DNA of 64,000 nucleotides from Marsupella aquatica (lineage: Eukaryota > Plantae > Marchantiophyta): NCBI GenBank assembly GCA_973895155.1, contig OZ316899.1, positions 8,249,241-8,313,240 of the forward strand, in the 5' to 3' direction. The notes beneath the pieces are model-generated. The model was not told the origin of the DNA. It worked only from the letters and a program-made list of their open reading frames with translations, and searched no databases. Shown piece after piece: positions 24,693 through 53,560 of the stretch (positions are counted from its first letter, which is position 1; every line of letters begins with the position of its first letter). The translations under genes were made by a program, and so were the position numbers.

Positions 24693-24713
24693 TTTAGGGT
24701 TTAGGGTTTAGGG
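24693..24713 (+). repeat. Interstitial plant telomeric motif (TTTAGGG)3
   Basis: Three exact copies. Confidence 0.85.
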
Positions 24714-24779
24714 TAAAATATGAGAAGTAGAAAAAAGTCCAACACTCTAGTGAACTTCATGGTAGAAAAGTACGCCTCT

Positions 24780-25820
24780 TGGGTCAAAAAGGTTGCCAGA
24801 TGAGACCCAACCTCTCAGAGACCCTCTCTGAGATGGAGTTGTGGGCATACTTTGGCCAGATGACACAACTTGTGGACCCTCTTAACAGTTTCAAAGGGTT
24901 AGCTACAACATACACTGTGTCTCTCAGAAACCCTCTCCGACATGAAATTAAGGGTATTATGTTTCAAAGGAAGGACCCAAATTGGTTCTATCCCACATCT
25001 GATGTTAGAGACCCTCTCTGAGATGGAGTGGTGTGGCCCGAACGGCCAGACGGAAAAAATTGTCAATCGCGTCTTGGGTGGAAAGGGAAGCAAGATTGCA
25101 ACCCAATCGCTCGGAGACCCTCTCTGAGATGGAGTTGTGTGCCCCAAGTGGCCAGAGAGCAGTTCTCCCAGATGGCCTCTTGGATCAAAAAGGTAGTCAA
25201 ATGAGACCCAGTCTCTCGGAGACCCTCTTTGAGATGGAGTCATGGGCGTACTTTGGCCAGATGACACATTTTGTGGACCCTCTTAACAGTTTCAAAGGGT
25301 TTGCTACAACATACACTGTGTCTCTCAAAGACCCTCTCCGAGATGAAATTAAGGGTATTCCGTTTCAAAGGAAGGACCCAAATTGGTTCTATCCCACATT
25401 CGATGTCAAAGACCCTCTCTGAGATGGAGTGGTGTGGCCCAAACGGCCAAACGGCAAAAATTGTCAATCGTGTCTTGGGTGGAAAGGGAAGCGAGATTGC
25501 AACCCATCGCTCGGAGACCCTCTCTGAGATGGAGCTGTGTGCCACAAGTGGCCAGAGAGCAGTTCTCCGAGATCGCCTATTGGGTCAAAAAGGTTGCCAA
25601 ATGACACGCAGCCTCTTGGAGGCCCTCTCTGAGATGGAGTCGTGGGCGTACTTTGGCCAGATGACACCACTTGTGGACCCTCTTAACAGTTTCAAAAGGT
25701 TAGCTACAACATACACTGTGTTTCTCAGAGACCCTATCTGAGATGAAATTAAGGGTATTCCATTTCAGAGGAAGGACCCAAACTAGTTCTATCCCACATT
25801 TGATGTTAGAGACCCTCGCC
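24780..25820. repeat. Tandem repeat, ~400-bp unit x ~2.6, with four internal GAGACCCTCTCTGAGATG motifs per unit
   Basis: Units begin near 24780, 25181 and 25581 (TGGGTCAAAAAGG...). Confidence 0.9.
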
Positions 25821-26044
25821 AAAATACAAGGATGAACCCAAAAGTGCATGCAAAAGCTGACCGTACAGTACTTTTCAATGTTTGTACAATCTAATTATGT
25901 GTGGATCGCGTGTCCATACAAATCTACCATCTCAGAGAGGCTCGCCAAATACAAATACAGTTGCCCAAATGACCCGAGTCCATCTCAGAGACCCCCGCCA
26001 AGAATAATTTAGGGTGGCAACTAAATGACACTTTGAGTGAGGAA

Positions 26045-26640
26045 GTGTTATATGGGCCGCAAGTGTCCCCAATCCACCACAGACAGGCTTGCCAGATAGC
26101 GCGACCGCATGTCAGAGACCCTCGCCAAGTAGGATTCTAGGTAAAAATCTATGGGAATCCATCTCAGAATCTTGGAGACCCCCGCCAAGAATGACTTGGG
26201 ATGAAAAGTAAATGACACTCAACGACCAAGGAAGTCCCTAATCCACCACAAAAAGGCTCGCCAGCTAGCACGACCGCATGTCAGAGACCCTTGCCAAGTA
26301 GGATTCTAGGTAAAAGTCTATGAGAATCCATCTCAGAATCTCGGAGACCCCCGCGCAAGAATGACTTGGGATGAAAAGTAAATGACACTCAACGACCAAG
26401 GAAGTCCCTAATCCACCACAGAGAGGCTTGCCAGATAGCACGACCGCATGTCAAAGACCCTCGCCGAGTAGGATTCTAGGTAAAAGTCTATGAGAATCCA
26501 TCTCAGAATCTCAAAGACCCCCGCCGAGAATGACTTGGGATGAAAAGTAAATGACACTCAGCGACCGAGGAAGTCCCTAATCCACCACAGAGAGGCTCGC
26601 CAGATTGCGCGACCGCATGTCAGAGACCCTTGCCGAGTAG
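26045..26640. repeat. Tandem repeat, ~170-bp unit x ~3.5
   Basis: AATCCACCACA...GACCGCATGTCAGAGACCC recurs at ~26071, 26240, 26410 and 26579. Confidence 0.9.
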
Positions 26641-27222
26641 GAAGTCGGAAGGCTATTTATTCATCCTTCAAGTCAGGATTTTTGCAAAGGGGATTATAAG
26701 CCACACGACGGAAGAAGAAGAAATGTTTTAGGCAAGACCAGACGGAATCTTGGAGAATATACTACATCCCTAGAGTTTGCATGTACCTTCTTGGCGGCTG
26801 CTGGCAAATATGTACCTTGTACATGTGTAGAATCTGTACCTTCTTGGCGGCTGCTAGCAAATAGGTACCTTCTTTGTGGTACAGTTGTTATATGTACGCT
26901 CCGGATTCTACAATCGTTATATGGTATGCACGTTGTCCGGAACGGTATTCTTGGCGTAAAGTATAGGTACTTTAACATCTGATGTACCGCCCAAGTTCTA
27001 AGCCTGAAAGTGCGGTATTATTGGCATAAAGTGGTACCAAGACTTTAACGTCTGATGTATAAAGCCAAAGGCCTAGGGACTAACATTCCCAGTGTGGATT
27101 TGGGACACATGGCTTCTCTTGTGATAATCCAATCAGTAAGCGGGGATGTTGTTGTTTTTTGTTAGATTGAGGGAGACAGTGTTCGAGTCACTAAGGAGCA
27201 TGAAGTAGCAAGCCGATTTAGT

Positions 27223-27957
27223 TTGAAGGTAGGGGATTTCATGATTTACGAGGAGAGAGAAGATGGGTTGTCCACTTCTGCTAAATCCAAAGGCGATGGA
27301 GATGAGCAAGAGTGGTATCTGAAATGTGGCGTGTCCTATACTATCTGCAAAAAGAAAGCAAGTTCATGCAATGTTAGTGAGGGTCTTGGAGATTTTGCAC
27401 ACTCCCCACAGATTGATGAACCAGGTGAATTATGGAACAATACACCGCGTCAGAAATTGCCCCAATTTTGGGAGGACATTCACCAAGTTGGTAGACCCCA
27501 CTCAAATTTGTTGCCAATGTGGCGGGATGTTGGAGAGGCAGATGAGCCAATGAAGGAGACACCTCGACCCAACGCAATCAATCTCAGAGGGGGTCTTCGA
27601 CATGGTGAACCTTCTTGATTGAGTACACCTAGGTCAAATTCATTCCATATGTGGGAAGATGTTGGAGACGTGGATACACCAGTGAAGGAGAAACCTCGAT
27701 CAAGTGCATTCAATCTCAAAGGGGGTCTTCGAGATGGTGAACCTTCTCAGACAAGTACACCTGGGTCCAATTCATTCCAAATGTGGGAGGATCTTGAAGA
27801 TGGTGATACACCAGTGAAAGAGAAACCTCAATCAAGTGCATTCAATCTCAGAGGGGGTCTTCGAGATGGTGAACCTCCTCGGACAAGTACACCTGGGTCC
27901 AATTCATTCCAAATGTGGGAGGATCTTGGAGGGTATAACCACCGTGCTAGCAAATAG
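27223..27957 (+). pseudogene. Uncharacterised ORF remnant built from 120-bp (40-aa) tandem repeats
   Basis: STPGSNSFQMWEDL...TPVKEKP.SSAFNLRGGLRDGEP repeated ~3 times with decayed copies upstream; one in-frame stop at 27616-27618. Confidence 0.45.
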
Positions 27958-28405
27958 TAAATAGATATTCTCATACGAGCCAATTTTGCCTTGTACAAGC
28001 AAAATTTTGTCTTGTACGAGTAAACAAGTTCCTCCTATGAGCATATCTATTTACTCGTACGAGTTTCTGTTTTCTTGTATGAGTTTCTGTTTTCTTGTAT
28101 GAGTATTTTTTTTTCTTGTATGCATTTTAGTTTCTTCTCTTCACGGTATGTAGCGTCCATATATGCAATAATTGTGCAAACAATATTATGGTGGGTCCCA
28201 CCATTGTACAACATCGGAGGAAATTTCTTGACAATTTCACACAAGGACTCCAATATATTGCCACAAAATATGAAGTCGAAACAAAGTCATACAATACCGG
28301 CGCTAGTATTGTATTATACAAAAAAACAACACTTTAAGAACTCACACTTCTGCCCGTTAGAAAAGACAAACTACAATTGTAGTTGTTCAACGATAAAGCA
28401 ACAGT

Positions 28406-31400
28406 CTACGTTCTCGTTCCCAACTGCCTATCAAGTATGTAACGGACTTCTCCCAACGTTAGAATTGGCTGGCTACATAATGTCGAATCGAGCACATCCA
28501 GTTTGAACACATTCTTGAACACCCAATACACATGTTTGCAAGGCATGTAAGGCTTCCGATAAGTATGCCGATGGTAGAAATCCTCGCAAGAGCAACATGG
28601 GAAACAACATATCTGAACCCAATAAGAGGTGACTGATCTCTCATGTTCATGGGTCCGGATACAAAACTGTTTCCCCGACGCATTTCCACTCGTGATCTCT
28701 CTCTCTCCAATGACGCTCATCACTTCTTTTTCAGAGGCTTCAATTCTCTTCAAATGTGTTTGGGTAAGATGCACTCTTTGCAAGCATTTCTTCCCGTTCC
28801 TTGAAGCGCACCTCACAGATGGGTCAGTTAGGTTGATCCTCTCCGGGAAAAGATTGACATCAATCTGTAACGCAGAAGGCAATGGTGCTTCGATTTCATC
28901 TCCACGGCCTTCAGAGAGAATAAGTCCTTGTTCTTTCAAAAATTGAATCTCTGCTCCAGAAAGATTGGTCCCTTTGGCAATTGGGAGATGTGAAGGAACA
29001 TTGGGAATGTTCGAGACTCCTCTCCTTGTTGTGCTTCGATGATAGTGGTTGTTGGGGCAAAACCATATTTGATCGTTATAAGGTTGCCCCCTGAACATTC
29101 TGCATCCTCTCACGGAAATTGCAACAACACCATCTGGATTCGGAAGGCCAACCTTCTTTACTCAATTTCGACATTCATCACGACTACCTCCCCGTCCAAG
29201 GGTTCTGTTACACATTGGACCCGCACCCCGTTTTCAGGTCCAACGCAACTGCCAGGCACCGGGAGGTACTTCACTTTCCATTGGGGAAACTGAATGACAA
29301 TATGCAGTCTCGACAGGTCTTGCAGGTGTCACTGGTGGGACAGAGGATCTCGTTGCTTGATGCATAGGTGTGTCAATGACCACAACTTCCTCAGAAGCAT
29401 TGCTTTCTGACAAATTATGGACCGCATCAATTCCACCAGCTGAAGGCGTAGAAGGCATTTTCTCGAAATCAGTGGAATGCAGGTTTCTCCTTTTCAAACC
29501 TTTTGTATTTGGTGAAGTAACAAGGATGGTATCATGCCTGTGCGAGTCTTCTGCCGAGACGTTCCCAGTTGCATGTCCTTTTCGTTTCACCGATCGAGTT
29601 ACAACATCACCATTCAATGGAACGCTTCTTTCCAAATCAAACTCAACAGCGTTTGACAGGAGGAGATTGGTGGCTTCCTCAAAGAGACGCGGTGACCCCG
29701 CCAGGTCCACCGATCTGAAGGCAAGCTCAAAAATAGTTGGGTCAGTTCCTCTGCTCAATCCCCTTTTGTATGTAGTATAAGCAGCAATTTGAGCAACCGC
29801 TCTATTTTGGTCCGTTTTGCATCCTTCAAACAGACCAACCTTTTTTTTCCAGTTGCCATGCTTTCATTCCAGCATGCCTAGATTCCGAACTAGTACAATT
29901 AGGAATCATCCCAGCCTCTTCGGCACTCTTGCTCTGAAACATTGCACGCAAGGGTTTAGTACATGTAAGAAATTGCACACAAAAGTGGCAACACAATGGA
30001 AATAACAATAGCGCCAGACGCTAATAAACTGATGATGATATTTCCATGTAAAGAACCATTTAACACAGAATAAAGGTAGTCCTTACATCACTCATAGTCC
30101 AAACGGATTATTAGCGCTCGGCGCTACTATTGCGGATAAGGAACTCTTCTATCTCACACATGCTTCACTAGCGCCAAGCGCTATTAATGGGAACATGCAT
30201 CCTAGAGCAGAGTATAACTCACCAGTCTTATGAAGTTCCCCCATTGTCTCCATTGGACAACCCACCAAGACAGCCACCCTTGCAGCATCCGAAGTTTGCC
30301 TGAGTGACAATTGCCAGACCTCCACCAGTCATCGATTTCCCTCGAGATTCGATATGCTTTCAAGAAAGTTGGTGCGTTCCGAAGACGATCCCACATCTCC
30401 TTGTGCTCTCCGTGCTTTCCATCTTTTACACCTTCTCGGGAATGACGATGAAAAGATTGGAAAAAATGAAAGGCATCTGATCTTTCTCGCTCTGGGTCGG
30501 GTACACCGTCAAAGAACACGTTTCGAACAACATTCCAACCAGCCTGAGCATTGTCCGCCATGAATCCCCGAATTGTAACATCTTGTAAACCATTTTCATC
30601 GGCAACCTCTAACATCAAACGCCAGGCTCTCTCTAGAGATTTTGCATCTTCGGCCTTTAGCTCACAAGTGAATATGGTGCAAAGTGCCCGGTAATGATGA
30701 TCATATACATGGGCACTGAAAGTAAGCCAATCTGCCGTGCTTCGATGCATCACGTCAAAACTTACCCATGAACCCTCTAACGACCCACCAGGTTTCATTC
30801 TTTGGAGCAGGTCCAGACCACTCCCGTCACCTTTTACGGTCATTTTAAAGATATGAGCACTCTCGTCCCGACAGCCTTGACCAGGGAGCAAGAACCTATG
30901 AAGAAAAGGCAGTCGGATACACTTTTGCATCCTCACAAGAAATTCCAGTTCCCCTTTCCCCTTCTGATCTTGATGGACACTCCTTAACACGGATGCAAAC
31001 TTCTGAGGAGATGCAACGACCATTAGGGACTCCCAGATTTCCTTCTCTTCTTCAAGAGAGATTTCTTCAATAGAGACCTCGCAAATGTATTCGTCAGTGT
31101 CTCAGTCGCAGAGTTTTTGATCCCTGTTGGGGATGCCATGGGGTTTGCAGTGAATCCCTTCTCCAGATGAGACCTTGCAACCTTTTCTGCTTCCCTCGAA
31201 AAGACCCGTCGACTGGGATGATTGTGAAATCCCATATGAACAGCTAGTCGCGACATGTGGGCCAAAGACTTAACGTCAACTTTTGCAGATGGATACATGT
31301 AGAACATTAGAGCAGGGCAGGCCTCAACGCACATCGGAGGTTCGGAGCAATGGTGACAAACAACTCCACCTTCGGAGATCAATTCCCCAACTCGGAATGG

Positions 31401-32190
31401 GCCCGAAAGTTTTGGGGTTCTTGCCCACATCTCATTATTTCGAAACTTGTTGTCTTTCCACCACGGACAAACATTATTTTGACACTGCAGCGATCCCTTA
31501 CACTGGACTTTCCCAAAATCCCACATTTTCTTGGGAAGAACATTTGAAGACGTTTTCACAATCCGATTCCAATAATAACAATCCTTACCATGATCCATAT
31601 CTTTCAAACGTTCACCTTTTGCGTTCACACTGTCTACCGAGGGTAACTCAAAAACCACATTCCCATTGTAAGATGTGGGAAGACTAGGCACTACGTGATG
31701 AACAAAATCACTCCCCCTTATAAACCGAGACAATTCACTATGACCTTTGGATTTCAAGATTGTATCCATTGCACTCTGCCGGTACACAGTCAAAGGCACA
31801 ATCATTTCTCGATCCGCATTAGACTCCTTTTTAACCTCAGATGGGTAAACTGGAATCTTCTCTCCAAGAGTAGTTGTCGCTTGCTTATCATCTCCAGAAC
31901 TTTCCGAGAGTTCGATGACATCGAGTTCAGCCGCTGTGGGAGGACGAGTATAGGAGGCCCCAGAATCTCTCAAAACAAAAACCTCATATTCTTTCTGAGC
32001 CTCCAGAGTCCAATATCTTTGACCATGAACAACATCGTAGAAAACTGGAGTCTCCCCCAAACAAACCGACACTAACGAGATCGCTAAAATAGACTCCTTG
32101 GTGACATCAAATCTCACTCCCAAATATTCCTCTGAAACACGCTTTGATTCAGATGATTCGAGGACGGGAATTGTGATTACATCCTGAGTG
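28406..32190 (-). pseudogene. Mutator-like (MULE) transposase 1: GCM-like zinc DNA-binding domain, DDE core, C-terminal SWIM finger; probable intron ~29935-30220
   Basis: CKGSLQCQNNVC...CHHC...C...HMGFHNHP; SFDVMHR / GFMADNA / DAFH / SESRH; CSCEDF...PCKHVYWVF; frameshift near 31030-31050. Confidence 0.8.
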
Positions 32191-32194
32191 TCCT

Positions 32195-35100
32195 TACCCC
32201 TGGTAACTGGGTTCCACCAATTGGAGTTGGACCTGATGAAGCCAAGCATTTAAATACTGTGGCTTGTGTCTTCAGCCGCTCCGTTTGGTTGTCGGCCCGC
32301 CGCTGTAGGTTCTCCATCTTCCTCGTGATTTCCTCCAACTCCTCTTGGGTCTCGTCCAGGTCCTTGCGCACCTCCTCTAGCTCCTTATTGGCTTCCTCCA
32401 ATTCTTTTTTCAAGGTAGCCCTCTCCTCCTGGGTTGCTCTTAGCTCCCTGTCGAGCTCTGCGACGACCACAAACTCCATCTTATTCATCTTGGCATAAGT
32501 CTGGTCGAGTTGGTCGTCCTTTTCACGCAGGTCGGCCTTGAAGCTGGCCGTCAGGGACGCAAGCTCCTGCTGCAGCGCAATAATCCTTTGATAGGATTTC
32601 CCTAACTCTGCTTCCTTCTACTCAAGGGCTCCGCGGATATCTTTGAGCTCTCCTTTCAATGCCCTCTCCCTTCTCTGGTTCTCCGCCATGGCCCGATTGT
32701 TGGTTGCTAAGTGGGCTTCCTCTACATCCCTTAGCTCCCGCTTCCATTTCTCTCTCTCCTTGACTGCGCCGGCCAACTCTCCTTGGGTCCGAGTCAGTTT
32801 ATCTTTGATAATCTGATTGTCAGACTGAGCGGTATCCAACTGCCCCTGCATGATGTTTAGCTCATGCCGCTTAATCCGCAACTCATCTTGGGCTTTCTTG
32901 GCTGCCTGCAGGTCTTCCACCTTGGCTTCCTTCTCCCTAAGCCGCCGGATGACCTCGTCCTTCTTGCTTCTCTCCAAAGCCACCGCTTCTTCTAATTGGT
33001 GCTTTTCCAACATCTCCCTCTGGAAAAAGGGTCCCTGCTCCAACTCCTCCCCAAAGATGCTGAGCGCCAAGTCCCCACACATCTCCCCGTACTCCATGGC
33101 TCTATCCTTAGCATAGGTGGAGTAACTAGAAGTCATCGGCATCAACCACCGCGGCCTCTGCTCCCAAGCCGTCTTGCGGATTTCTTCTACGGTGGCAAGA
33201 GGGTTGCTTCTTTTCTCGGCAAGCCGCTTGATGTCCTCCGGCCAATCTCCTCCTGGTAAATCCTTCTCCCTAGCCAGGACTGCTCTCTCTTCCTCCCTAA
33301 GTCGCTCCTGAAATTCTTGTGCCATCTGCTTTATGCCGTCAAAGCTCGGGGGAGCAACCTCTGGTGGTGGAGACTCGGTGTTACTCTGCTGGGTGGGGTC
33401 CCCTCGAACAACTCTTGGAAGTGTGGGGATAAATCGGCCACAGGTCCTTACTCCTGGAACATGATGATCCGACCCATAGTTGGAGTTATCATTGTTGTAG
33501 TCTTCCATTGCCTCCTCCACTACTTGGACTCCCGGCTCCTCTGCCTCTGATTCGGGGCTTGAGGCTCCCACGTACATTTGCACTCCCGGCTTGTGTTCCG
33601 GCCTTAATCTCTCCTTGGTTCTGGTAAAGGGGTCTTCCCTTCTGAGTCGGCTTAGGTCGACTTCTGGGGCAGCGTCCTATATCGGTGTCGTTGCCGTTGC
33701 CGGAACCGTTCTCTTTTCCTTCTCCAACAATTTTAGCAGATTTTGCATGCCTGGTTGCTGCATCGGCAAGTCTTCTTTCCTTGGCCTAAACACCTGCTCG
33801 ATCGTCGGACTGTCGGGCTGGTTGGGCTTCTCTGGTGCCGGCCTCTGCTCCGGGACCTCCTCCGGTGCCCTTGCCGATAGGGGAAGTACTGGGGCAAAGA
33901 TTTGACTTTTGGCATACCGGCACAACAGCGGCATGTGATAGCCAAGCCGGGACACGCTTCCCACGCCGATCACCTACTGTTCCTCCTTCAAGATCTTCTT
34001 CAGTTGGTTGAGGAGGTACCCGTTGTAATCCCGGCTTGGGTCTGGCCTTTCTGCCAGGTAGACCTGAGACTTGCCAATCTCTGCCCTCGGCAAGTTATAG
34101 TGCATGGTCACTCGCAAGAAATCAATCATCTCTCTGATGTGCGGGTTGGTGCAGGTGTTCCGGAAGAAGCCATTCTTCGTTGATGGTCCTGGGAACGACC
34201 GGAACTCCTTGTCAGGTAAGGTCTTCCTGGTATCAACCTTGGTCTTATTACCCATCGGCAAGCCAAACACCTCAGCAATCACCCGGGGAGTGAGATAGAA
34301 ATCCTTCCCATACACCCTCGTGGAATTGGTCTCGGGTTCCCATGATCCCACGAATTCTAACAACTCTGAGTCCGGCACCTTCGGCTTCAGCCATGGTAAT
34401 CTTACGAAGGCTTCCAAGCCGGATCCGGCCATGAAGCCTTGGTACTTCTTGGTCTGCATGGCTGTAAAGCATGCATCCTCCTCCCATGCAAAGTGTAATT
34501 GCACTTCCTCCGGTAGGGTCGCCGCCCAACCTTTCCAGGTGTCATCGTTTGTTGGAATGGCATTGATGGGATTGACCTCTTCCTCATCGGCTTCTCCCCT
34601 TGTCCTGCTCGGCTGCTCTACTGGCTTCCTAGGTGCCGCCGACCTCGTTCTTTTTGCCGGGGTGGCCTCTTCGTTGTTGTTTCCTTTCCTCTTCATCTCG
34701 ATTGCCGTGGATGTTTCTCCTAGCAAGGTTGCCTTCGTCCACCCCTCCGTGTTACCCTTCAACTCCCAGTGTAGGTCGTTGCAACGATTGATGGCTTCTC
34801 GGATGCCGACAATTTTGTTTTTGCAAAACAGAAGGTCGTCGAGTTGATTGGTAGTAGGAGTCCACAAGAACTCGGCCTTGATAAGTTCTCCTCCTAAGAA
34901 AGCCGTCTTCTGCAGTTCCCAGAGCCGAGCGAGCTCCTGCCGTTCTCGAGCTGCTCTCTCCGATTCTTCATCCTCGTAAGTCCTGACGTACTCACCTGCC
35001 CGTTCGAACAGGCATCCCCAAAAATGTGCCGCTTGATTGACATTGCTCATACCCTCCTTGAGTCGATCGTTGGTATCTGTTCCCACCCCGAGTGCTTGCC

Positions 35101-35428
35101 TAAGCAACGGACAGCATTTGGCCTCCCATAGTCGTCTGCCCAGTTCGTTCTTGTAAATGAGCCACTATTCCTCACGAGTGGTCCTTACCCCTCTCCTCCT
35201 CTGGTCTCCCCTCCCGTTGGTCACCCCTAGCCGCCGACGCTTAGCGCGCCCTAACCCTAATCGTGTTCTCTCCCCCGGCGTCCTCACTTCCGGCCTCGGC
35301 CCGGGTTCCATAGTCACCCTTAATTGTTTATATTTTCCTTGTTTTTTGGTCCTATACTAAGGTGTTTCCAGGGTACACTCCTGCTTACCATGTAAACCGG
35401 GCTTAGTGATTCCTGGCTAGGCATCACA
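32195..35428 (-). mobile_element. Family-X LTR copy 3, 3'-truncated, with its ORF (ATG 35311)
   Basis: Minus strand begins TGTGATGCCTAGCC at 35428, inside GFMAD of transposase 2; ORFs 33974-35107, 33677-33973, 32618-33583 and 32177-32488 match copy 2; homology stops at ~32195. Confidence 0.92.
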
Positions 35429-36632
35429 TCAGCCATAAAACCTTGAATGACAACGTCCTGTAACCCGTTTTCCTTACAAACCTCAATCATAATTCTCCAC
35501 GCTTTCTCAAAGGACTCCGTGTCTTCAACTTTTAGTTTGCATGTGAAGATTGTACAAAGAGCTCGGAAGTTGTGATCGTAAACGTGTGCACTAAAAGTAA
35601 ACCAGTCGGTTGTCACTCACTTCATCACATCAAAACTCACCCAAGCTCCTTCCAATCTTCCGCCGGGTTGCATCTGCCGAAGAAGATCTACACCAGATCC
35701 ATGACCCTTCACTGTCATTTTGAATATATGGGGCCTATCTGCTACACAACCCTGACCCAGCAGGAGGTACCTTTGGAGGAAAGAAATGTTATTTGACCTT
35801 TGCATCCGAGCTAGGAAATCTAACTCACCACGACCAGCCTGGTCCATTCGAATGCTTTGACAAAGCGATGCAAATTTCTGGGGGGTAGACAGTACCATGA
35901 GAGACTTCCAAATCTCCGTTTCTTCAATATCTACTATGTTGTCGACGTTTTTGCAAAGAGCTTTCACGAGCAAACCGGTTGCGGAATTCAAAATACCTTG
36001 GAGAGCGTTCCCTCAATGGGAGGCAGTTCAAATACAACATTTCCGTTGTACTTTTTTGGCAAACAAGGAACTTGCTCATGCCGGAAGTCCCATGCCGAGA
36101 TAAATCTTGACAGTTCACTATGTCCCGTGGCCTTGAGTAAGGCGTCCATCGCACTCCTCCGGTAGACTTTATGACCAACTCCGGAGGTAGCCACCGGCTC
36201 ATCCTTAACAAAAGCGAGAACTGGAACTTTGTACTGCGATGGAGGAGTGGGTGCAACATCACCATCTTCACTGTCAGATATGTCAACAACAACAACAGGA
36301 ATGTACCCAACTGCTGGTTCCGGAGTGACACGTCTGACATTAAGCGTGTAACTAAGCCCGACATTCATATGCCAAAAGCGTACTCCCTCATCTACATCAA
36401 ATGCCGCAGCCCGTTGAAGTTCTCCACTTGTCGATTCCTGCGGAACAATGGACTCAATATCATTCATCCTCAAATCAAATCTCCCGCAAAGGTAGGTTTC
36501 ACTAACTTGCTTGTAAGCATCAGAAACTTGCACGGGGATCTTGACCACGTCTCCGGTACAAGCATGTGTAATTACAATTGAGCGAGATATTGTGGAGAAA
36601 ATGAAGGAATCAACAAAGCAAATTCCTCCCAA
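35429..36632 (-). pseudogene. Mutator-like transposase 2 (N-terminal half, GCM region deleted), cut by X copy 3
   Basis: Paralogous to transposase 1: YRRSAMDALLKATGHSELSRFI, YNGNVVFELP, HIFKMTVKGHGSG, WVSFDVMK, FSAHVYDH, GFMAD. Confidence 0.85.
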
Positions 36633-36822
36633 ATGGAATGCTTATACTAATGCGTGAAGATGACTGACCGTTATAAAAGTTGTTTGAATACGACATAGAA
36701 TTGTGTCCGTTGAAATCATAAATGTAGAGTTTGTCCTTTTTGCCCCGGTAAGTGCGGGTGTCAGGGATATTTTTTGTGTCAAAATGAACACATATAGGCC
36801 AAGATAATTCACATGATTTCAG

Positions 36823-37211
36823 CAGCGCCTGGCGCTACCAAAAATTCCAGTATTTATAAGGTTAGAATTCAGTCACACACCAGACTAGCGCCGGGCGCTA
36901 GCATTACAATGGACACCAATAAGTCTACTTTTTTGTATCCAAAAATGCAATATCGTCCAAATTTAAGCACAATTCAGGGATATATGTACTAGCACCGGGC
37001 GCTAGTATTGGTACACCATATTTAAGGACCAAATCTGATCAAAATTGAACTTCGTACGCCTAAAGTTCTTCATTTTCAAAAATTTCACATAAACTGGGAC
37101 CAAAAACAGAATCGTGAATAGACCACGGAATGGGTAGCGTCGGGCGCTATCTATTGAACACATTAAACTTTATGACAATGTGGGTCAAGTTTGACTAGCG
37201 CCCGGCGCTAG
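36823..37211. promoter_or_regulatory. Cluster of five TAGCGC-N3-GCGCTA palindromes in the divergent transposase / ParB-like intergenic region
   Basis: Copies at 36823, 36886, 36990, 37135 and 37196, each with 0-1 mismatch, in an AT-rich background; function inferred only. Confidence 0.6.
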
Positions 37212-38978
37212 CAATGCATTACCAAGTTTTAGTAGTCTGGTCAACGGTAATATTTAACGGTAACTACGGTTAGCGTGATCTTCACAAAAACAGTTTAGCG
37301 GATTTTACATTGATATCTGTCACAATTCTTAGATTGTCGCTTTGTTTTAACGATAAGTAATACCCAATTTCATCGTAACATCTCTTAAATAGATTACATG
37401 GAGGGAGATAGCACTGATCAATCGGGTATAATACTCCATCAACTATCTATTAATTTGGTACGGAGATTCAGTACTTGATCGTGAGATTTGTAGTGTACGA
37501 CTGTTTGTACAACACTCATCGCGGGAGACGATGGATGCAGTCCCCTCCTCGTCGAGGGGGTATAGTGTTGTTGGGGATCGTGATCGTGGCTATTGCAAGT
37601 CTTTTGAGTCTTCATTTTCAGGTTCAGTGTATACACATCAAGTGACGAGGTCAAGCGCATCGCTTGTTCCCATCTCAAGTAATTTGTTTCCGAAGCCGAC
37701 GCAAAAAAAGATGGAGAATGTTGACACATTTGCAATCGGAGATGTCTCATTCTCGGAGACCGACCTTATTTCAAAACATGTCATGTTCTTTGGGAAGGAT
37801 TTCCAAGGGTTTAACAAGGAGCCTCCTAGGATTCCGCTATGTCGGTTGGTGCACATGGAGGTCGTCCGCACTTTGCAAAAAGATAGCTCCTCCATTGACA
37901 AGTTGAAAGACTCTTTTCGTAGTATGGGATACAATTCGTTGATAGGAATGAGGTTTTATGTTCAGCCGGCGGACGCTGAGGGTGTGACGCTCACTTGCAC
38001 ACAGGAAATTTGTGATACTTGGGATCCAACATGGATATCCAAAAACAAAAAGTTCAAGGAAGAATGTGCGGCAGACCTCGATTTTCTCGTTCTGAAGGAT
38101 AAGATGTTCTCAGTTTTTGACGGGAACTATCGGTTGTACTCCTGGACGCTTGTCACTAAGGAGAATCCAGAAAACACGAAATACCACCCATGAGTGCTCT
38201 GTACTGTCTTCAATGGGGACAAGGGTTCACTGATTGAAATTGAAGTGGCGATGCACACCGTGAACCAGTAAGTTTGTCTTTTTAGCATATCTTGGAGAGG
38301 AATTGTTTTATGAGCGCCCGACGCTGCTTAAATGTTTTTCTAATTGCTTTCTTTTCCTTCAGGCTTGGACAAGCCGTGGTCGAACCGTCATGGATCCTTG
38401 ATGCAGATCGAATCAAGAGGATTTTGATTCACGACCTGGAGTACTATAGTAAGCTCATTGACCCTGCACATTATAAGAAGTTTGAGCAGATCAGGTTGAA
38501 GACGCGGAAAGGATCCTGGTACACAAAGAAGATGCCTCAAAAGGCTCTTGTCTATATTCTATGTGAGAATAAGATTAAATCATATTCTAACCAGTTCAAG
38601 CTTGACATGGAGTCCGCTGCGGCCCTAGGTACCCCTTGGTCGGCCGAGGAGGTTTCCACAAGGCATGCTGTAATGATGAAGGAGGCCACCAAGGAGTGGG
38701 CAGTGAAAACATCAAAAATCACTCCTTTGTTGAGTCCAGAATTTGAGGACTTTCTGTCTACGTGCGTAGAAATGTATGCTGTGACAGAGAGAAATAAGCG
38801 AGAGAAGAAACCAGATACCGTCTTGTGTACGATGGACCGAGCCAGGCTTTTTACTGCTGTTTCCGCACTCGACCCCAAGCTCAAGAGTACTTTGCTTGTC
38901 GCCCATTGCAATCCTGAGCTCCAAAGGCAATTCTTCCATCTGAACAGCGTCAATGATGATCCAGTAAAACAGTGGTGT

Positions 38979-41009
38979 TGTAATGCTGTACATTAGTTAG
39001 AAATGATGGGAATTTTATAAATTTTAAACTTTTTCTAACTCAAAGGTGCAATTTAGTTACCTTTTGTAGTAATTTAGATCAACTGAACACTTTACCTAAC
39101 GTTATGCTTCATCGGAGGCTATTGCCTCTATTGGATAAGGATCGACAATATAAATCCTTGCTCTTTACATGCTACCAAGAAAGAAGACTGGACATCATTG
39201 GAGAAGCAATGTAGGCTAGAAGATTCAAGAACCGGACTCCAAAACACTTCTTCAGCAAGAATGAGCTCTGTGTGCAATTATCACGATCAACCGATCTTTG
39301 CTATTTTAATTAAATAGCTATCATAGTCAGAAAAGTCTCATACTTTTTCAGGAGTTAGTAGTTACACCTGCAAGTTTCATCTCAAACCGACATGTGGTTT
39401 GAAAGTTAGAATTAATTTAGTTTTACTGTTTTTCGCATAGCCGCGACTTCGCCGACGCTTTGTGAAGCGTCCCTTGTATTTTTGGACGCTTTGAGAAGCG
39501 TCCACCCAAGACCACGACGCTTTCTGAAGCGTCCACCACCCAACCAGCTGTACTCCGACGCTCTGCAATCCACATGAGCACCGACGCTCACAGAAGCGTC
39601 TGCTACCCCGAAGGCGACCTCGACACTGTGACGCCCACTGAAGCGTCCCGCCCGGAGCCCAGAAAATGGACGCTGCGACCAAAACCTCAAAATTCAGCCG
39701 ACGCTTTCTGAAGCGTCCATAAAAGTCCTTTGTAGGTTTGGACGCTTTCTGAAGCGTCCACTATGTTCCCGACACTTAGAAAAAATTTCAGTTTTCGCAC
39801 TTTTATAACACCGCCCCACTTTTACCGATTTATTTGAGGCACTTAGAGATCTCAGAAAAGTCTGAAACTTTGTCAGCATATAGACTATATGTAGTAGAGT
39901 ACCCTAGAAAAGTTTCAACTCCTTTCGACTTTTAGTTTAGAAGTTAAAATTAGATTAAGATAACTGTTTATTAGTTTTACCGAAAACACCGACGCTTTGC
40001 AAAGCGTCCGCTCAAACCTCGACGCTTTGAGAAGCGTCCCCTGCATTTTTGACACTTTCAGCAGTGTCCATTCACTTTTCAAGGATGACCGTCATTAAGT
40101 TTATTCAAGACCCTTTAAATATGAAAGGGCATGTCCTTTCTGTATCTCAGTCTCCTTGCGTTCCTGCCAGCCTATATGAAGTAGAATTTGTGTCATTCTC
40201 GAGTGTGAAGAAATAAAGTAGTGCCTATGGCATGTGCTGCAACACTGGAATCACCTTTGCAAAACTTTCGAGTGTTTTCGTATGGTATGGAGCTTGCAAA
40301 TGCAAAGGGATTCTTCTCCCTTCCTTGGTCTGAATGATTGAGAGTTTAGATCATTGAAGTAAAATTACTTGTATGAAGTTGAATCTCAGAAGTATGAGGG
40401 AATAGATTCCTTAAGTGGTGACAACCCATCTTCTTGAGTTCTTGATGCATAGTTTTTGGCATGACATTGCTTGTGCACGGATGCAAAGATTGTTACTCAC
40501 CAATTACCTGTGACTTCAATTTGATCATGATGGTGTTTATTATTCGTGACTCAGAGTACCGACTGGATATCGAAGTGATTGATTACTAGTTTCTTCTGAG
40601 TACCTTTGGAAGGAAAAGTTGAGACGTGTTGATGGCATTTTAGTAATCATCCTAGTACAGTAATCCATTCCAGAAATGTTCTTACAGATTTACCACCCAA
40701 ATAACATCAAATGAAGTATTGATGAGAAGTTACCTTGGTGTTTTCCAGACTCCCTCATTATACCTCAAGATTTCATTGTGTTTTGTTATTTATTTCCATT
40801 TTATTAATTGCATTTACAATGTTAAGCAAACATTCAAATCTATGTCTTGCTGAGCAATCATAGTAAAAGGCTCAAACCTGTGTTTTTGTTACCTTAGTCA
40901 TTCATAAGTGTTAAATGATAGAAAATCATTCCTTTCTTGTTCTTCCATGGGATCGAATACCGAGTTTTGGACATTAAATGCTGATTTATGTCCTTAGTGC
41001 AATACTACA
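38979..41009. mobile_element. Solo LTR C, 2031 bp, non-coding
   Basis: TGTAATGC...ATACTACA termini; 5-bp TSD GGTGT (38974-38978 and 41010-41014); host reading frame restored on removal. Confidence 0.88.
39450..40070. repeat. Dispersed palindromic repeats GACGCTTTNNGAAGCGTC inside solo LTR C
   Basis: About ten copies, e.g. 39454, 39485, 39516, 39700, 39741, 39991, 40021. Confidence 0.85.
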
Positions 41010-41648
41010 GGTGTCATACCTGGATTACGTGGAACAATGTACAGGGGATTGCAGGGGGGATGTTACAGTGTGCTTTGAGAGAGGTCCAACAAATCATTCC
41101 CAAGAATCGCTTGCAAGCCTGGGCATGTGAATCTTTTGAAGCTCTCATTGATATAGTTACTAATGATTTCAAGAGATACAGAGACTCGGTGAAGAGTAAG
41201 TTTTTTAATACAATGTGGCCTTCGAAGTATCTAGACAAAGAGGACTACTCTTTGAAGAACCAGAAGCGAGCAAAAAGGTACCTCTACCAATTTTACATCC
41301 ACATGGAAGTAACTAGACCTGATTACTTCTGGGCATATCCTGTCGCTTTTCAGAAGTGGACAGTAATATCAGAAGGTGACAATTTATCTGATTTGTACTC
41401 TATGTACCCCGCGGAGGGAATTTTCCCAGCGAGACCTTTAAGTGAATGGGAGAGAACCCACTATCCATGGTACCTAGATACATATAGATGGGACTCGCCC
41501 TTTAATCACCGAGAAAAGGATGCTTTCCACAAGCTCTCTAAGTCCTAGGTACCAGTCAATATTGTTTCTGACATGAAGCAGGGACTAGCGGACGATGTAG
41601 ATAAGTCCACAAAGAATTGCAAATGAACTGTGAGACCACAGTTGTTCT

Positions 41649-44600
41649 GACAATCAACTCAAGAAGGATATGAGCAACGTCAATCAAGCTGCTCATTTTT
41701 GGGGATGCCTGTTAGAATGGGCAACTGAGTACATTGGGACCTACGAGGACGAAGAATTGGAGAGAGCCGCTCGAGAATGGCAGGAGCTCGCTCGACTATG
41801 GGAGCTGTAGAAGTCTGCCTTCTTAGGAGGAGACCTCATCACGGCTGAATTCCTGTGGACGCCTACTGCCGACGAACTCGACGATCTTCTGTTTTGTGAG
41901 AATAGAATAGTCGGCATCCGGGAAGCCATCAACCGCTACAACGACATACACTGGGAGTTGAAGGGTAGCACGGAGGGGTGGACAAAGGCAACCGTGCTAG
42001 GAGAAACATCCACGGCAGGCGCTATGAAGAGGAAAGGGAACATCAATGAAGAGACCACCCCTGAAAAGAGAACAAGCTAGGTCGGCGGCACCAAGGAAGC
42101 CAGCCGAGCAAGGGAGCAAGAGGCAGGAAGAAGCCGAAGAAGAGGAGGTCAACCCCATTAATGTTGTTCAGACAAAAATGACACCTGGAAAGGCTGGGCG
42201 GCGACCCTCCCCAAGGAAGTGCAATTACACCTTGCACGTGAAGAGGATGCATGCTTTATGGCTATGCAGACTCAGAAGTACCAAGGCTTCATGGTCGGAT
42301 CCGGCTTGGAAGCCTTTGTGAAGTTACCATGACTGAAGCTGGAGGTGCCACTTATTAGAATTTGTGGGATCCTGGGAGCCCGAGTCCAATTCCACAAGGG
42401 TGTATGGGAAGGATTTCTATCTCACTCCTCGAGTGATTGCCAAAGCGTTTGGCTTGCCAATGGGCAATAAGACCAAAGTTGATACCAGGAACACCTTGCC
42501 TGACAAGGAGTTCCGATCATTCCCAGGGCCATCAACGAAGAATGGTTTCTTCCGGAACGCCTGCACCAACCCACACATTGGGAAGATGATCGATTTCTTG
42601 CGGGTAACCATGCATTGCAACTTGCCGAGGCCAGAGATCGGCAAGGCATAAGTTTACCTGGCGGAGAGGCCAGACCCTAGCCAAGACTACAACGGATACC
42701 TCCTCACCCAATTGAAGAAAATCTTGAAGGAGGAACAACAGGTGATCGACAAGGGAAGCGTGTCCCGGCTTGGCTATCATATGCCGTTGTTGTGCCGGTA
42801 TGCCCGAAGTCAGATATTTGCCCCGGTACTTCCCTTGCAGGCAAGAGCACCAGAGGAGGTTCCGGAACAGAGGCCGACAACAGAGAAACCAACCCAGCCC
42901 GATAGTCCTACAGTCAAGCAAGTGTTTAGGCCAAGGAAGGAAGACTTGCCGATGCAGCAACCAGGCATGCAGAATCTGCTGAAATTGTTGGAGAAGGAAA
43001 GGAGAATGGCAACAGGACTGGTACAGAATACTGCTCCCAAAGTTGGCCTAAGCCAACTTACTAGGGAAAACCCCTTTACCGGGGCCAAGGAGAGAGGGAG
43101 GCCAGAACACAAGCCGGGAGTCCGAATGTATGTAGGAGCCTCAAGTCCCAAAGCCAAGGAAAAGTAGCCCAAAGCTCCTAGTCGCGACAAGGAGAAGAAT
43201 AGATCAACCTGGAAGCCGGAGGAGGAACCAGGACCCGTGATCTGTGAGGCCGTGTTCACGGCAAAACCAGGAGAGCAACGGGGCGAGCCGATAGTCCAAG
43301 CCGCGGAGGAGGCGGTAGAAGGCTACAACAATGATGACTCCGGCTACGGGTCGGACCATCATGTTCCAGGAGTAAGGACCTGTGGCAGGTTCATCCCCAC
43401 TCTTCCAAGAGTAGTTGGAGGGGACCCCACCCAGTAGAGCAGCCCCGAGTCTCCCCCACCAGATGTTGCTCCCCCGAGCTTTGACGGCATAAAACAGATG
43501 GCACAAGAGTTTCAAGAGCGACTCAGGGAGGAAGAGAAATCCTATCAGGCGATTATTGTGCTATGACAGGAGCTTGCATCCCTGACGACCAGCTTCAAGG
43601 CCAACCTCCATGAGAAAGACGACCAGCTCGACCAGACTTATGCCAAGATGAATGAAATGGAGTTTGAGGTTGTAACGGAGCTCGACAAGGAGCTAAGAGC
43701 AACCCAGGAGGAGAGGGCTACCTTAAAAAAGGAGCTAGAGGAAACCCAGAGAGAGTTGGAGGAAGCCCAGAAGGAGCTGGAGGAGGCGCGCAAGGACCTG
43801 GACGAATTGCAGGAGGAGTTGGAGGAAAGCACGCGGAAGATGGAGAACTTACAGCGGCGAGCCTTCAGTGGCGGAACGGAGCGGCTGAAGAAACAGGCCA
43901 CAGTATTTAATTGCTTGGCTTCCTCAGGTCCAACTCCAATTGGGGCAACCAAGTTGCCAGGAGTAGTACTGGCCAAAGGACAAGCCGAGACACTTGCTCC
44001 GGTGCCGGAGGTAAGTGGCAAGGGGAAGGGACCAGCTGCCGAAACAGGGAAGAAGAAAAAGCAAAAACCTTATGGGTCAGGGAGTAACACGGCTTCTCAA
44101 GCCATCGTGACCAAGGAGGTAAACCCGGCACCAACCTCAAGCAGGGTCACGGTAGAGGATCCAACTGTCCTACAAGGCGGGGATGGCAAGGGCAAAGCCG
44201 GAATGCTCGGTGATGAGGCCGGTGTACCGAATCCACCACTAGAGCAGGTCGGGGAAGCCGTAGCCATATCAGAGGCCGTGGCCGATGCTGAGGCCAAAGC
44301 CGAGGGTGGACCCAGTCAGGCCAATGGAGAGTTGACTCGGTCCGGAGCAGGTAATCTGTGAGAGGACGGACCTACGGTAGTGGCTGCGGAGGAAGTGTTG
44401 GGAGCGTCCATTGAGGATCAGCCACCACTACCATGACGGTGGTGGAGGGCTGCTCCTTTTAAGGAGGGCAGACGTGGAGGGAGGAGGCGTGAGTGGGCAG
44501 GGCGGGCTCATATCTCCAAGTTTAGAATTAGGATCAGGACCGAGAGGCGGCCCTGACACTTAGCTTAGTGGGATTGCGGATCCACTGGTAAGAGCAACAC

Positions 44601-45328
44601 TTGTGCTCCTGCCTCGTTGTACATAGGTAGATTACAGTCAGGTTAGATTAGGCTTATGCTGCAAGGAATTGGGCGGATCCACTGCCAGGATAAGTACCTA
44701 GGCAGCGGGGGGTTCAGGGCCTTCTTCCTTAGCAAGTTTTTAGTGCAGCAGCAGGGCTGGGATCAAGTAGTTAAAGAAGCTCTCGGTAGTTATGCTGTGA
44801 CCCTTGTGTATATTCATGTTTCCTCATACCTAAGATGAATAGAGTTGGCCTCATGGCTTAGTTCGCAGATCTTGTGTATGAGAAGTACTGTCTGTATGGC
44901 AAGTGCATGGTATAACTCAGTCAAAAGAAGTCATTTTGCTATTTGTGTGTCGCATTAACTTGTTTGAAGATTGCCCACATCAACCAAGAAGGGAGTAAGC
45001 AAGGTAGTAAGAGTTGGATGTGTCGAGTTGAGAGAGGTCTTAGCGGCTTACCCAAGCCAGTTGGGGATCATTCTGGCGGCGGAATCCAAACATACCTAAA
45101 GGAAGACCAGGAGAGGAGGACAAGGGAAGGCATAGAAGAGGCCGGCTACGTATCACATGACCCGATGAAGGATCTGTCCAATATATGTGTGTAAAATGTT
45201 AGTAGAAGGAAGTTAGCAGCGTCCCATGCCGCTAAGCCATGAAACCGGCCTCGCCAAGAGCAAAACCTGCGGGAATCGGCTTGTGCAAGGGGGTTTCTTG
45301 GGTTCAGGGAGCCATGGGACGCACCACA
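41649..45328 (+). repeat. Family-X LTR copy 4 acting as the 5' LTR of D (first ~350 bp missing; ~690-bp internal deletion near 43536)
   Basis: Colinear with ~10590-15006; deletion joins GGAAGAGAAA to TCCTATCA through GAAA microhomology. Confidence 0.92.
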
Positions 45329-50880: not shown

Positions 50881-51250
50881 TTACATAAACCTATATCGAG
50901 CCATTCCACACCTTTGTGGGAATGCGGCTTCATTCTTGGCCCCAGTCTCCTTGAATTTTGAACAATTCAAATTCTGACATTGAACAACACCTGTGCAACG
51001 GACCTTGAAAATAGAGCAGTGGTTGCATGGCTTCAGGTTAGCAGATGTGGTGACCAATCTTGTCCATGGGTAGCCATCACTATCACAATCCATGTCTAGA
51101 AGCCCTTGCCCTTGCCCAAATCTTGATTCCACAGGAGGAAGCTCATAGACCTTGTTTCCATTGTAACTTGTGGGAAGTCCATCAACTTGGGAATCAACCC
51201 ATGCAACATCTCTTCTAAATCTAGCAAGCTCACTAGCCCAAGTAAAATTA
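50881..51250 (-). pseudogene. Third Mutator-like GCM-domain fragment
   Basis: SELARF...LPTSYNGNKVYELPPV...DGYPWTRLVTTS...CTGVVQCQNLNC matches transposase 1; ends at a GTAAG donor-like site. Confidence 0.8.
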
Positions 51251-51259
51251 TAGTGTGAG

Positions 51260-53560
51260 AATTTTGAAGTTGTCGTGTTGCGGATTAAGAAACTGCCATA
51301 CTCCGCTGCCCTAGCTGGCTGACCCGATGTAAAATGCAATAGCCAAGTGAGTTGGTCATTCAATCTATCGGCGGCGGCCAGCCATTCGCGTAGGGCCTTC
51401 TTGTTCCACATCTGGATGTGGTTCTCATCGTAGCAATGGACAAAATGCAATGATCTCATGTCATTGGAGAACAGATGCTGGTGCAAATCGTGCCCGTGCT
51501 CATGGAAAGGGTTTCTTTATTCAATGAGGAACGAGTATCCATTCCTATCTTTGTTGAGCTCGTCCACAATTACGCTGCCCCCGGGTACCAACAATCACTC
51601 CAACCAATCTGTGTCCAGACCCGGAAGAACTTGTTCCCGCATAAGGACGGTGCATTCACTAATCACTGCCATCACCATTTCTCTATAGCGGTCCAGTGTG
51701 ATCGGGTTGCCACACACTTTGCATTATGTGTAACCGGGCTTTGATGGAATGAGATCCGGTCTTTTTGGCTTTTTGCCGATGAGCAAGCAGATAAGGGTCT
51801 GGCAAGAAGAAATGTAGCCAAATGGTGTCTCTATTAGCCTGGGTTTATCCTCCACATATGCTAGAATTGCTCTCGCATCTTTGACATCCAGGTCATCCGC
51901 TGCCGCTTGATTCCAAAGAGTGTGACATAACTCCATTGATCACCGCTTGGCACCAGAATTTCATCATTGACAGCATTGGGGTGACATCTGTGGATTCCTT
52001 CCATGCATAACCAGTGAAGAGCGCGCACGCTTTGAGCAAGGACATGATCAAAAACTGCACAAAAAAAATTGTCCGTCAATTTTTAGGCTACCACCTTCGT
52101 TGGATGTGCGAGGGTCCACAAACCGAGCAACAGGTTGTTTAGGACACTATAGTCAAAGTGGTCTGGGTCTATGGGACCCTCTGGAAGGGACTCCAACTGG
52201 ATCTTTAGTGCTTGGAGAAGGACCTTCAAGTGGTCGGGAGCCTTCACAACGAGGAGCACATGGGACCCTGGAGGATCACATGCAGAGAGCAATAAAGTGA
52301 ACAGGAAATTTGTCATGACCAAGCAATACTCCTCTATCGTGGACTCCTAGAGGAACTTGGTGAATCCCTATGGAGGGTCAGGACTCACAACCAATGTCCT
52401 CACTCTGAAATCCGCCTCAACCAAGACTTTTTGCACAAGCGTGGCATACGAGAGCACAACATCCGGGACCCGTGCATATGGGGAACCTTCCCGGCGAGCC
52501 AAATGCATGGGACCACTGATATTGTTGTACGTTGAATTCTCTGGTATGAGTCCTGCCACAACCTTCACTCATCCAGTGGCTCACAGCCACGCGGATAGCT
52601 CTTGAGCGGGAGGATCATTCTGTGCAGGGAGCATCCGCTCCATCTCAAGAATTGCCTTGGACAGCGCAAACTTCAGGCTTTGGTTGCAACCTTGGGCTTG
52701 GTCGGCTGGACATTGGACTGCAAAGTACTTCTTGCCGACACCTTGAACAAGACATTGAACACTGCTGCAATGCATGGTCATATTGGTAACTTTGCGATGC
52801 ACTTGTATCGTGTGATTATGCATAGTCTTCTTACTTGCGCTATGGTAGGTAGTGCAAAAGGGGCACAAGTAGCCTTTGCAAACAACAATATCGGGGACTG
52901 GGGAGACTAATCCCCAAATACAATGATCCCACACTGCATTGGGGGGGTTAATTGCATCCCCGCAATGGTTGTCGATAGTTGTCGCTCATCTTCTCAACTC
53001 CATAAGCTTCATCCCCCATTTCTATGGAGGGGCGCAAAATCCTTCTAGACATGCCTGCAAATCGTCCTCACGCTGGAATTGTCCTAGATCACATTGCAGG
53101 TAATGCACAAGAGCAATGCCATGCCCTCGTACTTCACCACAGACAAATCTGCTTGACTTAACACCTTTGGGGTGTCCACAAATTCTGAGATTGTTGCCAC
53201 CCGGGGACTTTCATTACTGGGAACCGAATCACCCAAATTGCCTGTTGGGATCAATGCACGACTATGGGTTGTCCGTTGGATGTGTTCTTTGGCATAATGG
53301 TTTTGCAAGCGGTCTGGTCAACATAAGTGAGACAAGCAAGAACGGTGAGGGCAGGGCCAATCATGAGCTACAGACATGCGGACTAAAGATATCATGCCAT
53401 CAGCCTTGATGACACTGCAAGTCGACTGATGAACTACTCTCCTATGAGCGGCTCTTTGAGAAAAAGTAACAAACTCCAATCCAGGACACCCATCACACCG
53501 GAACGTCATCGTAATGTCTGCTAGCAAATGAACAGGCTGGGTAGTTATATGTGGCCAACA
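51260..53560 (-). pseudogene. Fungal-type C2H2 - OrsD/DUF3505 - tyrosine-recombinase-like remnant (N-terminal part of telomere-linked RecQ-helicase-type elements)
   Basis: FRCDGC...HRRVVH; LLLCITC; PVPDIVVCKGYLCPFC...MHNHTIQVH...VQCL...KYFAV; LSAWL.ATGW; LLHFTSGQPARAAEY...IRN; many stops; family from remembered motifs. Confidence 0.6.

Follow-up and report, generated by a model that had tools for sequence, protein, structure and literature searches.

We analyzed a 64,000-nucleotide stretch of the liverwort Marsupella aquatica (contig OZ316899.1, positions 8,249,241 to 8,313,240 of the forward strand), referred to below as the window and numbered from its first letter. The window is eukaryotic and consists almost entirely of nested transposons, among them Mutator-like DNA transposons in which a transposase lies head-to-head with a spliced accessory gene. 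The feature is real. It is the variant, on Mutators of land plants, of a class of transposon accessory genes that was described only recently and whose function rests on proposals. We consider it rather probable that the region is a decayed Mutator-like transposon whose accessory gene had a front domain of predicted ParB/sulfiredoxin (ParB/Srx) fold and, in its intact form, likely a beta-class DNA-methyltransferase-like end, and that the product likely bound palindromes of its own element and marked or shielded the element DNA against host silencing.

Head-to-head pairs of transposase and probable accessory gene

The three elements concerned, A, B, and C, comprise the following features (LTR, long terminal repeat).

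36590 to 35429, minus strand: element A, 5' half of transposase 2, a Mutator-like pseudogene 40 to 64% identical to transposase 1
36591 to 37530, no strand: element A, spacer with five copies of TAGCGC-N3-GCGCTA
37531 to 38267, plus strand: ParB-like gene copy 1, exon 1, with the predicted ParB/Srx-fold domain; the start may be 37531 or 37711
38268 to 38362, plus strand: copy 1, true intron of 95 bp, GT..AG, phase 2, colinear with Riccia proteins
38363 to 38978, plus strand: copy 1, exon 2, first part, a conserved middle region aligned with relatives
38979 to 41009, no strand: solo LTR of 2,031 bp inserted in exon 2, with TG...CA ends and a 5-bp target duplication (38974 to 38978 and 41010 to 41014)
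41015 to 41648, plus strand: copy 1, exon 2, second part, with a stop at 41546 to 41548 and similarity continuing to about 41599
21819 to 23646, minus strand: element B, ParB-like gene copy 2, with DGNHR at 23085 to 23071 and an intron at 22966 to 22848
23647 to 27108, no strand: element B, spacer of 3.46 kb containing tandem arrays of 401 and 169 bp and the palindrome TCTCAGA-N7-TCTGAGA
27109 to 27930, plus strand: element B, third transposase, N-terminal domain and repeat linker, head-to-head with copy 2 and cut by element C
27931 to 27947, plus strand: 17-mer, inferred to be the likely terminus of element C, recurring at 54779 with different flanks
28406 to 32198, minus strand: element C, near-complete, frameshifted Mutator-like transposase 1, with catalytic D 30756, D 30555, DxxH 30477, and E at about 29885

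In element A, transposase 2 and the ParB-like gene diverge, as an earlier reading of the letters (the sequence-only reading) had stated; their spacer, put at about 0.8 kb, has that length from stop to stop and 0.94 to 1.1 kb between the likely starts. All transposase and ParB-like genes here are pseudogenes with stops, frameshifts, and insertions. Transposase 2 carries a frameshift near 36000 and a stop at 35617 to 35619, and an LTR retrotransposon whose end lies at about 35428 truncates it at the second catalytic Asp. Exon 1 of copy 1 has DGNYR at 38119 to 38133 and an in-frame stop at 38191 to 38193. The Tyr of this motif is private to the window copy, since contigs of all four runs have a His codon at position 38128 in essentially all of their depth; His also stands there in 82 of the 87 rows aligned, which makes DGNHR the motif of the family.

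The gene has one true intron. Introns of copies 1 and 2 (95 and 119 bp) share place and phase, and a GT-AAG donor stands at the same intron position in three metagenome loci. The 2-kb gap from 38979 to 41009, previously taken for a further intron, was rejected as such: its TG...CA ends, 5-bp duplication, empty site (joint 38973 to 41010, two contigs each in runs X2 and X3), and many copies identify a solo LTR, whose cover is about threefold that of the surrounding gene. Within it, positions 39327 to 40070 hold several copies of a short inverted-repeat array of the GACGCTT...AAGCGTC type; we rejected a small DNA transposon there, given its place inside the LTR. One X2 contig record spans 41255 to 41647 of exon 2. 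The gene end formerly set at 41548 had to be moved, as similarity to full-length relatives reaches about 41599, after which a retrotransposon fragment cuts the copy at 41649, upstream of where relatives have their methyltransferase-like domain.

The second, diverged copy of the gene is real and lies 4.8 kb from transposase 1, as had been reported, but its partner is a third transposase that starts at 27109 on the plus strand. We rejected transposase 1 as the partner, which is in tandem with copy 2 at that distance, whereas the third transposase and copy 2 point in opposite directions from the two ends of a 3.46-kb spacer. Its N terminus is 26% identical to that of transposase 2 (E value 4e-9, matched by none of 5,000 shuffles; 3e-6 against the whole window). 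Copy 2 has stops and a frameshift, and an LTR ending at 21818 removed its 3' end, which was sought beyond the retrotransposon (1850 to 4450) and not found there. The two copies are 42% identical in exon 1 and match in exon 2 with an E value of 5e-22. Thus, with the third transposase paired to copy 2, two deeply diverged elements share the head-to-head layout.

Element C interrupts element B. At 27930, a 132-bp repeat breaks off and the 17-mer starts, which is likely the end of the transposase-1 element, inserted later into element B; no inverted partner of this terminus was found within the window. Just inside it lies a 100-bp imperfect hairpin (27956 to 28055, 80%). Transposase 1 contains a zinc-binding region and a SWIM-like CxC..CxH finger (28594 to 28532), and a retrotransposon truncates its 5' end at 32199. 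DDE transposases of Mutator-like elements (MULEs) have two Asp residues about 65 to 70 apart, (C/D)xxH, and then Glu; transposase 1 shows D-67-D, DAFH 26 residues further on, and TSSESRH. In the Atlas, all ten best named matches are members of the MULE clan, and the highest score of a named match is 0.93. The Mutator-like assignment thus stands on catalytic motifs and Atlas matches, while Pfam gave it no support: MULE, SWIM, and GCM domains had no match in 24 open reading frames (ORFs) of the window or in 23 relatives and pieces, and the label GCM, attached to the transposase earlier, was confirmed by no library. A fourth transposase fragment at 50932 to 51342 (minus strand) covers the zinc-binding region and is 46% identical to transposase 1.

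Within each pair, contig cover runs on without a break and at a roughly even height. In run X2, the median cover of transposase, spacer, and gene is 780, 477, and 818 in element A, and that of gene, spacer, and transposase is 508, 454, and 630 in element B, values that are summed contig depths and not copy numbers. Long diverged X2 contigs have depths of 13 to 24, near-identical contigs of depth 119 to 309 lie on both genes, and one contig of this run, with a depth of 119 and 6 differences over 295 bp, joins the transposase start of element A to the spacer. That the gene is an accessory gene of a transposon family is supported by the two head-to-head pairs, which are independent of each other, and by flat multicopy cover. 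No element ends were seen, and support for linkage beyond the window is indirect.

The ParB-like domain, its relatives, and the palindromes

The exon-1 domain was modeled with its stop read as X and 87 sequences, and the predicted structure has a mean predicted local distance difference test score (pLDDT) of 94.3 and a predicted template modeling score of 0.88. The ten best Foldseek rows are all ParB, Noc, KorB, or sulfiredoxin (probability, 0.85 to 1.0; E values, 0.02 to 0.08), with 7BNR on top and none reaching 0.001. VIA-align, applied to 48,161 chains, gave 11 matches, every one of the ParB/Srx type: KorB was the best (Z score, 7.2; root mean square deviation, 2.6; 92 residues aligned), and the others include PadC, sulfiredoxin, pNOB8 ParB, Atu1540, SerK, SbnI, SspE, Spo0J, and BrxU. 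In the 87 aligned rows, the site residues are kept as Arg in 80, Gly in 82, Asn in 86, His in 82, Arg in 77, and a terminal Asn in 58 (14 gaps), and the DGNHR motif spans the end of a predicted strand (124 to 128) and the start of a helix (130 to 142). We take the upstream Arg, GNHR, and terminal Asn to match the nucleotide-binding boxes of ParB. The ParB/Srx fold proposed by the sequence-only reading is thus supported by the structure model and both structural searches.

By sequence, the domain stands apart. Pfam, NCBIfam, and Protein Data Bank sequence searches named no ParB domain, a PHROG ParB match was found in just 2 of the 87 members, no close prokaryotic or viral relatives were found in viral contigs, GTDB genomes, or phages, and a word-index search for long relatives yielded none among 826 candidates. 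A HMMER search found 188 ParB-domain relatives. Among 22 representatives looked up by name, taken from 150 listed of the 188, six are from Riccia sorocarpa, three from Adiantum, and one from Calypogeia, 12 have no species name, and none is an algal protein. We built a quick, midpoint-rooted tree from the 88 of 163 ParB-domain rows that cover most of the domain; both window copies fall in a starred clade of 36 rows together with Riccia fusion proteins, and the fern fusions fall outside.

Two observations on relatives may be added. P0061 of Adiantum capillus-veneris (1,176 amino acids) has a C-terminal NIF/FCP1 phosphatase-like domain (E value, 2e-12), which may reflect merged gene models or additional cargo. 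Besides, rank 9 of the Atlas matches to the segment 37714 to 38190 is a fungal cluster (feature similarity, 0.91) with DUF3723 in 14% of its members. This domain turns up in many Starship papers, and it may be one more accessory domain of the ParB-like kind in mobile elements of eukaryotes.

Each pair is accompanied by its own palindrome. The type-A palindrome, TAGCGC-N3-GCGCTA, occurs nine times in the window (0.03 expected; none of 100 shuffles). Five copies lie in spacer A (36823, 36886, 36990, 37135, and 37196), three in the intron of transposase 1 (30009 to 30183), and one near the second terminus; type-A palindromes are found near both likely termini (28299 and 54955). Spacer B has no type-A palindrome and carries the imperfect palindrome TCTCAGA-N7-TCTGAGA, with ten copies in 24813 to 25743; this type-B palindrome has 13 matches in the window against 0.37 expected, its copies lying in a tandem array and hence not being independent. 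Judged by sequence, different palindromes beside diverged ParB genes would fit element-specific binding sites, and they could equally be transposase sites. As further element motifs, we rejected GGCGCTAG at 4842 and 45334, which is placed after LTR ends and looks like a primer-binding site.

The methyltransferase-like end and possible functions

A relative from Riccia, P0153 (1,207 amino acids), aligns with both window copies across its first 540 to 700 residues and has a C-terminal match to Pfam N6_N4_Mtase (E value, 5e-5). The corresponding domain forms 26 clusters, all from Riccia and on contigs of eight different sizes, and thus shows the pattern of a dispersed repeat. PHROG DNA-methyltransferase families were matched by 19 of 24 aligned members, and the best Foldseek rows are CcrM, M1.HpyAVI, and M.MboIIA; the domain profile found no solved structure by sequence. 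Its motifs follow the beta-class order (IV...X-I-II), and the S-adenosylmethionine (SAM)-binding motif is kept as D-F-A-G-G-W in 16 of 22 counted. The canonical catalytic motif (D/N/S)PP(Y/F/W) is found in none of 26 sequences counted, the nearest being DVPF in one Adiantum protein; we therefore call the domain methyltransferase-like and do not class it as an active member.

Among 12 named Riccia genes with the ParB part, four are fused to the domain, three have it in the next locus tag, one has it three tags off, and four have neither. The start of the domain is also present in three fern-like proteins, two of them named as Adiantum. Since the Riccia fusions lie inside and the fern fusions outside the clade of the window copies, a ParB-methyltransferase-like fusion is the simplest ancestral state, and we infer that the accessory gene of the window lineage also once carried this end. 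In the window, retrotransposons cut both copies about 500 to 700 residues in, whereas the domain begins at about residue 950 in relatives, which explains why it is not seen there. Hence, the earlier description of the gene as a ParB-fold NTPase or nuclease covers only its front part, as the intact relatives are ParB-methyltransferase-like fusions.

The favored interpretation would work as follows. Both genes would share a divergent promoter with palindromes, at which a ParB-type dimer would load, as ParB does at parS, and the conserved Arg/DGNHR/Asn site would bind a nucleotide. The C-terminal domain would thereby be brought to the element DNA and write N6-methyladenine (6mA) or N4-methylcytosine (4mC) locally; if the domain is catalytically dead, the DNA would instead be occupied and shielded from silencing by 5-methylcytosine (5mC). 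In either case, the shared divergent promoter would stay active. A stronger version, which we regard as speculative and doubtful, is that liverwort Mutators and related fern elements carry a ParB-parS-like self-recognition system, with one palindrome per subfamily, a ParB-fold clamp, and a divergent but active amino-methyltransferase that writes 6mA or 4mC on the transposon. If true, land plants would have a second sequence-specific anti-silencing system besides VANC, and their transposons would bring in non-5mC DNA marks by a route that does not depend on DN4MT1. The land-plant feature also bears on a possible origin of 6mA or 4mC in the DNA of seed-free plants.

Several observations weigh against the self-binding interpretation. 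The best VIA-align Z score of 7.2 is middling, though the matches are unanimous. For the methyltransferase-like part, the Pfam score of P0153 is below the cutoff, the structure model is poor (pLDDT, 44.5), motif IV is noncanonical in 26 of 26 (mostly D-L/M-P-S/T-G, with an aromatic fourth residue in 1), and no such sequence occurs anywhere in the window. As to linkage, the cover values do not measure copy number, and no contig piece among those listed covers both genes. MULEs have terminal inverted repeats and target duplications of 9 to 11 bp; in the window, where all elements are cut by insertions, neither feature borders element A or element B. Species-named transposase matches number 8 of 47, all from Calypogeia fissa, and the other 39 have no species name; none of the 47 is from Riccia (only 30 to 508 amino acids were searched), despite its 26 clusters of the methyltransferase-like part, and the single Calypogeia ParB protein found shares a contig with none of nine Calypogeia transposases. 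By analogy with red-algal accessory genes, the Riccia gene may ride another transposase. Four metagenome loci (from 243 stretches), each just 1.2 to 1.8 kb long, contain no transposase.

The accessory gene might instead serve transposition and not protection from silencing, with ParB-type loading and bridging at palindromes aiding transpososome assembly or target choice and the methyltransferase-like part acting as a dead DNA-binding module. ParB proteins bridge and spread on DNA, and the uniformly noncanonical motif IV, together with type-A palindromes near both likely termini and in the intron, would suit such a role. However, the SAM-binding motif is well kept, suggesting that the cofactor is still bound, the densest palindrome arrays lie in the shared promoter region, and, to our knowledge, canonical Mutators transpose without a ParB-type accessory gene; we consider this role unlikely.

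That the protein of this lineage lacked a methyltransferase part and was, as originally proposed, a ParB/Srx NTPase or nuclease seems to us quite improbable. The window does lack methyltransferase-like sequence, the closest relatives (P0001 to P0004) are single-exon fragments that do not reach the C terminus, and 9 of 16 ParB-domain proteins of at least 500 amino acids miss the Riccia methyltransferase profile. Yet for two of these nine the domain is found one locus tag away, a third has a SAM-binding end, both window copies break off before the point where the domain would begin, and the fusion observed in Riccia and Adiantum relatives lies both inside and outside the clade of the window copies. 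Least probable is a chance nesting of a separate mobile ParB element with Mutator transposases, for which nearly all of the window being nested repeats, the unseen termini, and the lack of linkage by gene names in Riccia or Calypogeia may be cited, since two independent pairs are both head-to-head, start-to-start, and without foreign coding sequence between, the palindrome of spacer A recurs in another transposase of the family, and cover is flat across the pairs, whereas insertions stand out (the solo LTR threefold; element C 2.5-fold higher in run X3).

The window contains further elements. Adjoining the fourth transposase fragment, 51343 to 53000 (minus strand) has decayed ORFs with a weak OrsD/PF12013 match (E value, 6e-4) and a TSGQP-like motif, which presumably recalls fungal helicase- or recombinase-linked elements. 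From 54779 to 58750, the second copy of the likely terminus is followed by type-A palindromes (54933 and 54955) and plus-strand ORFs, one with a weak RING match (E value, 0.05); this segment may represent a further element of the Mutator type that carries other cargo. An open frame of 285 amino acids at 62525 to 63430 (minus strand) has no Pfam match; with its Cys-x-Cys-x2-Cys cluster and, ahead of it, a DG-GGG-VK motif, it resembles the end of another DNA transposase. Four repeat copies (1 to 1849, 10236 to 15006, 32199 to 35428, and 41649 to 45328), 82 to 91% identical, start with TG and have a long ORF within about 100 bp; they encode coiled-coil proteins without Pfam match, and next to the end of one copy lie a primer-binding-like site and a gag-like ORF. 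In our reading, these repeats are either the LTR of a Gypsy-like element or its 3' part.

Comparison with known systems

Among land-plant systems, VANC of the VANDAL Mutators would be comparable in function. VANC induces loss of 5mC via short motifs accumulated in the noncoding parts of VANDAL elements. Like VANC, the window protein would be a Mutator-borne accessory protein acting on short motifs in noncoding parts of the element, an action that is predicted here; VANC differs in its unrelated sequence, without a ParB or methyltransferase domain. Bacterial ParB, Noc, and KorB CTPases, sulfiredoxin, and the SspE/GmrSD-type DGQxR proteins share the predicted fold and the Arg...GxxR...Asn pattern, but the window-family domain has about 177 residues against about 90 aligned, and DGNHR in place of GERR.

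The Marchantia genes MpDN4MT1a/b (10.1101/2021.02.12.428880) likewise represent a prokaryote-type beta-class amino-methyltransferase in a liverwort. They are, however, a host sperm gene pair with canonical TSPPY, and ParB is not mentioned in that text; the transposon-family relatives have a degenerate motif IV, form a dispersed repeat, and look unrelated to them. ParB-linked adenine methylases have been described in chlorophytes, and land plants have few (PMC4738411).

The closest counterparts are algal. The accessory gene of Sola1-1_Ec32 in Ectocarpus encodes 1,104 amino acids with ParB-like and N4C/N6A methyltransferase domains, and lies on the strand opposite the transposase; the proposal is that its product binds the element from which it comes and modifies it (PMC12477816). 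Compared by description, the Riccia relative of 1,207 amino acids has the same domain order, but the former belongs to a Sola1 element of a brown alga and the latter family to Mutator-like elements of land plants. In Bostrychia, the Plavaka accessory genes PAG2 and PAG3 adjoin inverted-repeat arrays and have homologs in Chondrus Mutators, and red-algal accessory genes move between transposon superfamilies, Mutators included (10.1101/2025.02.11.637652). The best HHpred match of the algal ParB-like domain, 7BNR, is the top Foldseek row of the window domain. PAG3 combines ParB with a 2-oxoglutarate (2OG) oxygenase and PAG2 an N6 methylase with SET, whereas the liverwort and fern relatives have ParB and the methyltransferase-like domain in one gene. 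The algal type of layout is found in the window as well, with the gene opposite in strand to the transposase and inverted-repeat arrays adjoining.

The sequence-only reading, which listed mudrB, ULP proteases, PMD, and VANC as the known MULE accessory genes, had omitted these already published ParB-type genes of algal transposons, Mutators included. According to one of the two algal papers (PMC12477816 or 10.1101/2025.02.11.637652), VANDAL is the sole proven case of such action. The algal proposal of self-binding and modification becomes testable in liverworts, where genetics exist and apparently full-length Riccia proteins are at hand, and two elements with different palindromes offer a built-in control of specificity. 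Full-text literature searches, with subscription journals, Repbase, and the algal supplements outside their scope, found no land-plant report of ParB-methyltransferase accessory genes. As far as these sources extend, publications describe ParB-methyltransferase accessory genes for Sola, Plavaka, and Mutator elements of algae, and land plants add a Mutator variant.

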